13,094 bases of DNA from a virus. Below the pieces are notes generated by a model, which searched no databases, had not been told where the DNA came from, and saw only the letters and a program-made list of their open reading frames with translations. Shown here in pieces: positions 2,128 through 4,270 of this stretch; the first letter of the stretch is position 1, and every line of letters begins with the position of its first letter. The position numbers were made by a program, and so were the translations under genes. The stretch is from UHGV virus genome UHGV-1625130; one strand, 5' to 3'.

Positions 2128-2692
2128 ATGGCCATAAAAGGTCTTGAGCAGGCCGTTGAAAACCTCAGCCGTATCAGCAAAACGGCGGTGCCTGGTGCCG
2201 CCGCAATGGCCATTAACCGCGTTGCGTCATCCGCGATATCGCAGTCGGTGGCACAGGTTGCCCGTGAGACAAAGGTACGCCGGAAACTGGTAAAGGAAAG
2301 GGCCAGGCTGAAAAGGGCCACGGTCAAAAATCCGCAGGCCAGAATCAAAGTTAACCGGGGGGATTTGCCCGTAATCAAGCTGGGTAATGCGCGGGTTGTC
2401 CTTTCGTAAAAAGGGGCAGCGTTCAGCCCTGAAAGGTGGCGGCAGCGTGCTTGTGGTGGGAAACCGTCGTATTCCCGGCGCGTTTATTCAGCAACTGAAA
2501 AATGGCCGGTGGCATGTCATGCAGCGTGTGGCCGGGAAAAACCGTTACCCCATTGATGTGGTGAAAATCCCGATGGCGGTGCCGCTTACCACGGCGTTTA
2601 AACAGAATATTGAACGGATACGGCGTGAACGTCTTCCGAAAGAGCTGGGCTATGCGCTGCAGCATCAACTGAGAATGGTAATAAAGCGATGA
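2128..2692 (+). pseudogene. Z: Tail completion protein Z, interrupted by a frameshift (N-terminal part 2128-2409 in one frame, C-terminal part continuing in the +1 frame to 2692)
   Basis: Frame A gives MAIKGLEQAVENLSRISK...GNARVVLS then TAA at 2407-2409. Frame B from about 2400 gives ...[96 protein letters not shown]. Together these cover the full lambda Z sequence apart from the ...VVLS-RRRRR-KKGQRS... linker as I recall it. The span is 14 nt shorter than lambda Z (565 vs 579 nt from recalled coordinates). Confidence 0.7.
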
Positions 2693-3084
2693 AACATACT
2701 GAACTCCGTGCAGCCGTACTGGATGCACTGGAGAAGCATGACACCGGGGCGACGCTTTTTGATGGTCGCCCCGCTGTTTTTGATGAGGCGGATTTTCCGG
2801 CAGTTGCCGTTTATCTCACCGGCGCTGAATACACGGGCGAAGAGCTGGACAGCGATACCTGGCAGGCGGAGCTGCATATTGAAGTTTTCCTGCCTGCTCA
2901 GGTGCCGGATTCAGAGCTGGATGCGTGGATGGAGTCCCGGATTTATCCGGTGATGAGCGATATCCCGGCACTGTCAGATTTGATCACCAGTATGGTGGCC
3001 AGCGGCTATGACTACCGGCGCGACGATGATGCGGGCCTGTGGAGTTCAGCCGATCTGACTTATGTCATTACCTATGAAATGTGA
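2689..3084 (+). CDS. U: Tail tube terminator protein U
   Basis: 131-aa translation [54 protein letters not shown]... matches lambda gpU; its ATG overlaps the Z stop (ATGA). Confidence 0.93.
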
Positions 3085-3091
3085 GGACGCT

Positions 3092-3832
3092 ATGCCTGTA
3101 CCAAATCCTACAATGCCGGTGAAAGGTGCCGGGACCACCCTGTGGGTTTATAAGGGGAGCGGTGACCCTTATGCGAATCCGCTTTCAGACGTTGACTGGT
3201 CGCGTCTGGCAAAAGTTAAAGACCTGACGCCCGGCGAACTGACCGCTGAGTCCTATGACGACAGCTATCTCGATGATGAAGATGCAGACTGGACTGCGAC
3301 CGGGCAGGGGCAGAAATCTGCCGGAGATACCAGCTTCACGCTGGCGTGGATGCCCGGAGAGCAGGGGCAGCAGGCGCTGCTGGCGTGGTTTAATGAAGGC
3401 GATACCCGTGCCTATAAAATCCGCTTCCCGAACGGCACGGTCGATGTGTTCCGTGGCTGGGTCAGCAGTATCGGTAAGGCGGTGACGGCGAAGGAAGTGA
3501 TTACCCGCACGGTGAAGGTCACCAATGTGGGACGTCCGTCGATGGCAGAAGATCGCAGCACGGTAACAGCGGCAACCGGCATGACCGTGACGCCTGCCAG
3601 CACCTCGGTGGTGAAAGGGCAGAGCACCACGCTGACCGTGGCCTTCCAGCCGGAGGGCGTAACCGACAAGAGCTTTCGTGCGGTGTCTGCGGATAAAACA
3701 AAAGCCACCGTGTCGGTCAGTGGTATGACCATCACCGTGAACGGCGTTGCTGCAGGCAAGGTCAACATTCCGGTTGTATCCGGTAATGGTGAGTTTGCTG
3801 CGGTTGCAGAAATCACCGTCACCGCCAGTTAA
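3092..3832 (+). CDS. V: Major tail tube protein V, including a C-terminal Ig-like (Big_2-type) domain
   Basis: 246-aa translation [45 protein letters not shown]...AEITVTAS matches lambda gpV; GAGGA SD upstream. The track ORF start at 3062 overlaps the end of U and is not the lambda start. Confidence 0.95.
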
Positions 3833-3847: not shown

Positions 3848-4270
3848 ATGTTCCTGAAAACCGAATCATTTGAACATAACGGTGTGACCGTCACGCTTTC
3901 TGAACTGTCAGCCCTGCAGCGTATTGAGCATCTCGCCCTGATGAAACGGCAGGCAGAACAGGCGGAGTCAGACAGCAACCGGAAGTTTACTGTGGAAGAC
4001 GCCATCAGAACCGGCGCGTTTCTGGTGGCGATGTCCCTGTGGCATAACCATCCGAAGAAGACAAAGCTGCCTTCCATGAATGAAGCCGTTAAACAGATTG
4101 AGCAGGAAGTGCTTACCACCTGGCCCACGGAGGCAATTTCTCATGCTGAAAACGTGGTGTACCGGCTGTCCGGTATGTATGAGTTTGTGGTGAATGATGC
4201 TCCTGAACAGACAGAGGACGCCGGGCCTGCAGAGCCTGTTTCTGCGGGAAAGTTTTCGACGGTGAGCTGA
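3848..4270 (+). CDS. G: Tail assembly chaperone G (zero-frame product)
   Basis: 140-aa translation MFLKTESFEHNGVTVTLSELSALQRIEHLALMKRQAEQAESD...SAGKFSTVS matches lambda gpG; GGGGAG SD upstream. Confidence 0.93.
   Translation: MFLKTESFEHNGVTVTLSELSALQRIEHLALMKRQAEQAESDSNRKFTVEDAIRTGAFLVAMSLWHNHPKKTKLPSMNEAVKQIEQEVLTTWPTEAISHAENVVYRLSGMYEFVVNDAPEQTEDAGPAEPVSAGKFSTVS

Follow-up and report, generated by a model that had tools for sequence, protein, structure and literature searches.

We conclude that tail completion gene Z of the lambda-like phage or prophage of gut Escherichia analyzed here has probably suffered a genuine deletion of 14 nt, and that full-length gpZ is not made. Judged from its sequence, the allele is most likely a null (loss-of-function) or strongly hypomorphic one within an otherwise intact structural module. 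A lesion of this type is an ordinary, already known way of inactivating a gene and not a new biological feature. The DNA analyzed, hereafter the window, is the whole 13,094-nt stretch of UHGV virus genome UHGV-1625130. It is ENA metagenome contig ERZ507980 NODE_922, which was assembled with SPAdes at low depth (k-mer coverage 2.748, ~2.7x).

The window encodes a lambda-like late module comprising D (partial), E, FI, FII, Z, U, V, G, T, H, M, L, K, I and J, and the expected Pfam family was found for each gene of the module. The order FII-Z-U-V-G-T-H-M-L-K-I-J is common to the window and lambda, with Z located between the head-tail joining gene FII and the tail terminator gene U (2689-3084, plus strand; 131 aa, PF06141), as in lambda and Escherichia coli ECC-1470. 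Over its whole length, the window shares 97.6% identity with prophages of complete E. coli genomes, e.g., ECC-1470, and the Z region shares 95.9% nucleotide identity with lambda when the gap is counted. Apart from Z, every gene from E through J matches its intact homologue in both length and Pfam family. Divergence from ECC-1470 is highest in FI, M, K and J (3-5% mismatches), and FI contains an in-frame 3-nt insertion at 1579-1581, so that it encodes 132 aa in the window and 131 aa in ECC-1470. The programmed -1 frameshift heptamer of G-T (G GGA AAG) is intact at 4245-4251, and the T frame continues as in lambda.

Within Z, the frame that opens at ATG 2128 runs GTT GTC CTT TCG TAA and encodes 93 aa ending in ...GNARVVLS before the premature TAA at 2407-2409. 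This N-terminal part (2128-2409, plus strand) corresponds to gpZ codons 1-93 and has three mismatches to the ECC-1470 gene. Codons 99-192 follow in the +1 frame (2408-2692, plus strand), with one mismatch to ECC-1470 and the stop TGA at 2690-2692. They belong to an open reading frame at 2387-2692 (plus strand) that encodes MRGLSFR and then KKGQRS...RMVIKR. An initial annotation made from the sequence had described both the stop after ...GNARVVLS with its 93-aa product and the continuation of Z in the +1 frame; the list of open reading frames confirms the first, and the frame at 2387-2692 together with its Pfam match confirms the second. Searches with PF06763 (Minor_tail_Z) align the N-terminal fragment to profile positions 1-91 (E=2.5e-34) and the C-terminal fragment to 97-190 (E=6.1e-40), both above the gathering score, and only five arginines are missing from the profile coverage of the two reading frames combined. 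Z in the window is not one continuous reading frame; intact homologues are 177-193 aa. While lambda gpZ (192 aa, PF06763) is encoded by a single reading frame, Z of the window is split into the 93-aa frame-0 and the +1-frame reading frames, with no full-length product.

Alignment with lambda Z DNA, which the annotation had proposed as a check, was performed with lambda J02459 and E. coli ECC-1470 and contains a single gap of exactly 14 nt that leaves the region out of frame. The three-way DNA alignment, the whole-window alignment and the same junction in a second assembly (L004, described below) place the deletion junction at 2404-2407 (plus strand), inside the interval first proposed (2396-2420). 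Lambda reads CCTT[TCGCGCCGCAGGCG]TCGTAAAAAG at the junction, equivalent to S-RRRRR-KK, and the window at ~2393-2416 reads GGG TTG TCC TTT CGT AAA AAG GGG. The lambda protein sequence VVLS-RRRRR-KKGQRS, cited in the annotation, is borne out by the alignment with J02459. The deleted 14 nt are the arginine codons CGC CGC AGG CGT CGT minus one base. An earlier estimate of about 14 nt lost was therefore accurate in size, but the tract is not purely CGN as had been supposed, since intact alleles read CGC CGC AGG/AGA CGT CGT. Z measures 565 nt in the window vs 579 nt in relatives (all among the matches listed). With a deletion whose length is not a multiple of three and a premature stop, Z is most likely a frameshift pseudogene and at best a crippled split gene; the lesion is a deterministic sequence difference, to which a chance expectation is not applicable. 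The two reading frames are best annotated as one frameshifted Z pseudogene and not as two "minor tail protein" genes, and the allele can be traced with the 31-mer GGTTGTCCTTTCGTAAAAAGGGGCAGCGTTC.

The strongest alternative is a sequencing, library or assembly artefact, in which the true DNA has an intact Z and the gap stems from a handful of aberrant reads where depth across the GC-rich tract was very low. Sequencing or assembly error had been raised in the annotation, reasonably so at 2.7x coverage, but this concern is weakened by the identical junction on a second haplotype. That junction, along with the same 93-aa product, is present in another ENA assembly (L004; ERZ28667169, YEZI19-1_SAMN06115456 scaffold_7323, 1,389 bp), which is identical to the window at 1,386 of 1,389 positions and differs by three SNPs. 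At two of the three SNP sites, 1715 (C/T) and 2426 (G/T), other E. coli prophages show standing polymorphism, indicating that the two contigs represent different haplotypes and not a re-assembly of the same reads. The presence of the same junction on a second, slightly different haplotype makes a random sequencing or assembly error unlikely. The two assemblies might derive from one cohort or indeed from a single person.

The remainder of the contig bears on the same question. Compared with ECC-1470 over 13.1 kb, the window has two indels, namely the in-frame +3 in FI and the 14-nt deletion in Z. As only one of these breaks a frame, the contig is not generally error-ridden. Deletions of 14 nt are rare among Illumina errors, and to our knowledge a de Bruijn assembler cannot make a deletion across a 3-nt homology. 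In keeping with an artefact, the k-mer coverage of the contig is just 2.75, a small hairpin can form in the tract, the junction is missing from all curated genome and phage collections, and draft E. coli assemblies very often break at the tract (P0002, P0127-P0129, P0136, P0137), which marks it as a troublesome spot for short reads. Weighed against a shared junction in an assembly of another accession, with two known polymorphisms among its three SNPs, and 13 kb free of any further frame-breaking indel, an artefact is an unlikely explanation, and we favor a genuine deletion.

Contig ends at the Z poly-arginine tract (residues about 93-103) were also observed in a 704-member cluster with the representative ...RRRRRKKGQR and in 42 contigs starting with RRRKKG. 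Possible causes are a mosaic boundary between prophages of the same host and a drop in coverage at the GC-rich tract. A 93-aa NCBI "partial" protein ending in ...VVLS (P0129) was considered as a further instance of the deletion allele and rejected, because its label and neighboring partials (RR, RRRRRKKG) indicate truncation at a contig end.

The deletion allele is rare and is known from two metagenome contigs only. By megablast, none of 5,426 complete E. coli genomes, 3,948 of which carry a Z homologue, contains the junction, and neither does any of 50,697 phage records. The two-frame arrangement of Z is not conserved in either collection (0/5,426 and 0/50,697), and the related phages with the same split Z that the initial annotation had named as potential counter-evidence are absent from the 50,697 phage records. 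A 28-nt junction string had no match in GTDB species representatives or IMG/VR, and a 20-nt string had no match in GTDB representatives. Three matches of a 22-nt string in JGI metagenomes and seven of the 20-nt string in IMG/VR were discarded; all ten are chance occurrences in unrelated low-GC DNA, sharing with the window no more than the junction string itself (20-24 nt where BLAST reported a match). These chance strings (L006-L008, L020-L026) originate from few related samples, which advises caution with short exact-pattern scans of huge collections.

The deletion would most probably have arisen by replication slippage between direct repeats of 2-3 nt (TCG...TCG or TC...TC) that flank the GC-rich tract of arginine codons. 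Short repeats at both ends of a deletion are a signature of replication slippage or microhomology-mediated deletion. Here, the flanking microhomology is 3 nt (TCG...TCG) with a lambda-type parent and 2 nt (TC...TC) with an ECC-1470-type parent, the two alleles being about equally close to the window, and the placement of the junction is ambiguous around the retained T2404-C2405-G2406. The hairpin in the deleted tract has a predicted energy of -7.7 kcal/mol (z = -1.16), which is statistically unexceptional, so the slippage mechanism is only plausible and the hairpin optional to it. A hairpin-driven deletion, also considered, is reduced to a mere possibility by this weak fold.

Split or truncated Z calls are frequent in public data, and other frameshifted Z alleles of public E. 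coli assemblies also divide Z into two reading frames within a lambda-like tail module. Those are 1-nt homopolymer indels, chiefly at a G6 run, whereas the deletion of the window spans 14 nt, is flanked by microhomology and lies elsewhere in Z, in an otherwise clean contig. The 81-aa reading frame of the C-terminal fragment is recorded in 2,623 blocks. Ten places with this reading frame were read, revealing 1-nt indels in Z at eight and an intact Z at two, with the 14-nt deletion at none (0/10). Five of the eight 1-nt indels (L011-L014, L019) are at the G6 run that corresponds to 2357-2362 of the window, where it is intact. Several of the eight indel loci are in assemblies in which neighboring genes are frameshifted too, and many of the 1-nt Z indels are for that reason probably sequencing errors. 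At L014 (G7) and L019 (G5) the neighboring genes are mostly intact, and some such indels may be real. At L010 and L015 (positions 2668-3246), Z is an intact 192-aa gene for which the gene caller recorded only an 81-aa reading frame with a GTG start. Such mis-starts mean that the 2,623-block count overstates Z breakage, and as a proxy for broken Z the count proved unusable, with two of the ten loci intact but mis-started and the other eight carrying 1-nt indels of another kind.

The expected consequence of the lesion can be drawn from lambda, whose gpZ is the prototype tail completion protein (PMC11784142, PMC11099176, PMC11661146, PMC12617516). Lambda lacking Z produces normal-looking virions that are mostly non-infectious, with infectivity about 500-fold lower (PMC11784142, PMC11099176, PMC11661146), a loss attributed to a misplaced DNA end in the tail (PMC11784142, PMC11099176, PMC11661146, PMC12617516). 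The Z-defective phenotype given in the annotation agrees with this literature (PMC11784142, PMC11099176, PMC11661146). Lambda Z amber mutants are likewise without full-length gpZ, and by analogy a ~500-fold lower infectivity would be expected for the element studied here (PMC11661146, PMC11784142). The amber allele is a laboratory nonsense mutation, while the window has a natural deletion in which the C-terminal coding part is kept in another frame with potential internal starts. A frameshift that abolishes a tail gene product is also known from stf of lambda PaPa as compared with Ur-lambda (PMC12617516), but while lambda can do without stf in the laboratory, normal infectivity depends on Z.

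Based on the lambda Z-minus phenotype, the element would yield normal-looking, poorly infectious virions unless a co-resident lambdoid prophage supplies gpZ. In genomes with a Z homologue, the median number of Z-homologous places is two, which makes complementation in trans plausible, and gpZ from a co-resident prophage could relax selection against the lesion. The suggestion in the initial annotation of a decaying prophage exceeds the data, as Z is the sole lesion in 13 kb and prophage status is not evident from the contig. Assessments of prophage viability from metagenomes should count the element as probably defective or helper-dependent for Z.

A second alternative, which we regard as quite improbable, is that the split gene still provides Z function, either because the 93-aa fragment co-folds with the 81- or 101-aa fragment or because of a low-level +1 shift at CUU_U (2401-2404). 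Such a shift could give a near-full-length gpZ (...VVL-RKKGQRS...), and this could be sufficient if about one copy per tail is needed, as for the tail completion proteins (TCPs) of T5 and 80alpha. Both of these are monomers in the tail (PMC11784142, PMC11661146), which speaks in favor of retained function.

A structure was predicted for P0153, an intact homologue of 192 aa that over the aligned residues shares 97% identity with the N-terminal fragment of the window. The AlphaFold2 model (mean pLDDT 76.9) comprises helices at the N terminus (6-56), then a beta domain (59-151) and, at the C terminus, one long helix (155-191), in agreement with the published account of a gpZ model as a TCP fold that bears an additional beta domain at its apex (PMC11661146). 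R94-R98 are predicted in a low-confidence coil (92-111) between strands 88-91 and 112-115, and the position of the break in this coil is compatible with retained function. Against it, the strands of the beta domain come from both fragments and each fragment adds one terminal helical segment, from which it follows that neither piece is an independent domain. A sequence search found no solved gpZ structure, and Foldseek comparison of the model with the PDB gave no meaningful match. A BFVD search returned only uncharacterized or "minor tail" viral proteins and weak matches to the HK97 gp10 family. gpZ is resolved in no lambda cryo-EM map (PMC11784142, PMC11099176, PMC11661146, PMC12617516).

The arginine tract itself is variable in the family alignment; it is shorter in one homologue from Salmonella (RR-RR) and in one from Citrobacter (RR), and others have mixed basic residues. 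The 177-aa and 191-aa Z subfamilies, with clusters of >1,000 members each, lack it altogether, as does P0020, a 162-aa protein encoded in a 5-Mb genome with an in-frame 30-aa deletion that includes the tract. From these sequences, the arginine loop looks like an accessory, variable insertion. As the tract is non-conserved and lies in a low-confidence loop, its in-frame loss might be tolerated, which is a point in favor of retained function; the present loss is out of frame. The location of the penta-arginine tract in a variable, predicted-disordered loop bears on the structure and location of gpZ. Z variants without the arginine loop are found in alignment A3 (columns 86-116) as P0020, P0192, P0200, P0206 and P0213.

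Translation of the two parts was evaluated from the predicted initiation sites. Translation from ATG 2128 ends at TAA 2407 with an N-terminal product of 93 aa, and the remaining 94 codons would be translated, if at all, only from internal starts at ATG 2387 or GTG 2447. ATG 2387-2389 (plus strand) lies 20 nt before the premature stop, opens the 101-aa reading frame in the +1 frame and is a candidate reinitiation start; in the intact gene the same letters are out of frame (GGT AAT GCG). Its Shine-Dalgarno sequence is weak (anti-SD duplex -4.0 kcal/mol, spacer 0), and the start could be usable only by termination-reinitiation from TAA 2407. Re-initiation at this ATG, as suggested in the annotation, is thus matched by a reading frame but by a poor site (-4.0, spacer 0), and GTG 2447 is the better candidate. 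Here an SD-like AAGGTGG (2433-2439) precedes GTG 2447-2449 (2433-2449 in all, plus strand) as an alternative start for the 81-aa C-terminal fragment, with an anti-SD duplex of -7.2 kcal/mol and a spacer of 6, values like those at the native starts of L and G. The gene caller picked this start in L004 and in many other contigs. The usable Shine-Dalgarno sequence at GTG 2447 would support retained function, whereas ATG 2387 is almost without one.

For the shift route, which requires +1, the sequence offers CUU_U at 2401-2404 followed by UCG, a sense codon and not a stop, with no SD-like stimulator at prfB-like spacing. Inspection of the sequence at the Z break for a programmed frameshift found neither a slippery heptamer nor an SD-like element 3 nt upstream. 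The occurrence of the allele on two haplotypes, in a module that is otherwise intact, could be read as a sign of function, but a defective prophage inherited vertically would be just as likely to persist on two haplotypes, and the arrangement is found in no phage record and no complete E. coli genome. Even less probable is a naturally split gpZ, in which the fragments reassemble or the +1 shift at CUU_U suffices and the allele persists in an infectious phage lineage. Programmed frameshifting or transcriptional slippage was rejected for lack of both a motif and conservation of the arrangement, and because the A5 run is too short. Programmed -1 frameshifting in G-T also involves two overlapping frames, but the Z break of the window has no heptamer, needs a +1 shift and is conserved in no relative.

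If Z is inactivated by the deletion, as we consider probable, the effect may extend to the next gene. The U start codon ATG (2689-2691) overlaps the Z stop codon TGA (2690-2692) in an ATGA arrangement, and the anti-SD duplex of U is weak (-3.3 kcal/mol). These features suggest that translation of U is coupled to that of Z and make a polar effect of the Z frameshift on U possible; with the coupling at the ATGA overlap lost, gpU may be reduced as well.
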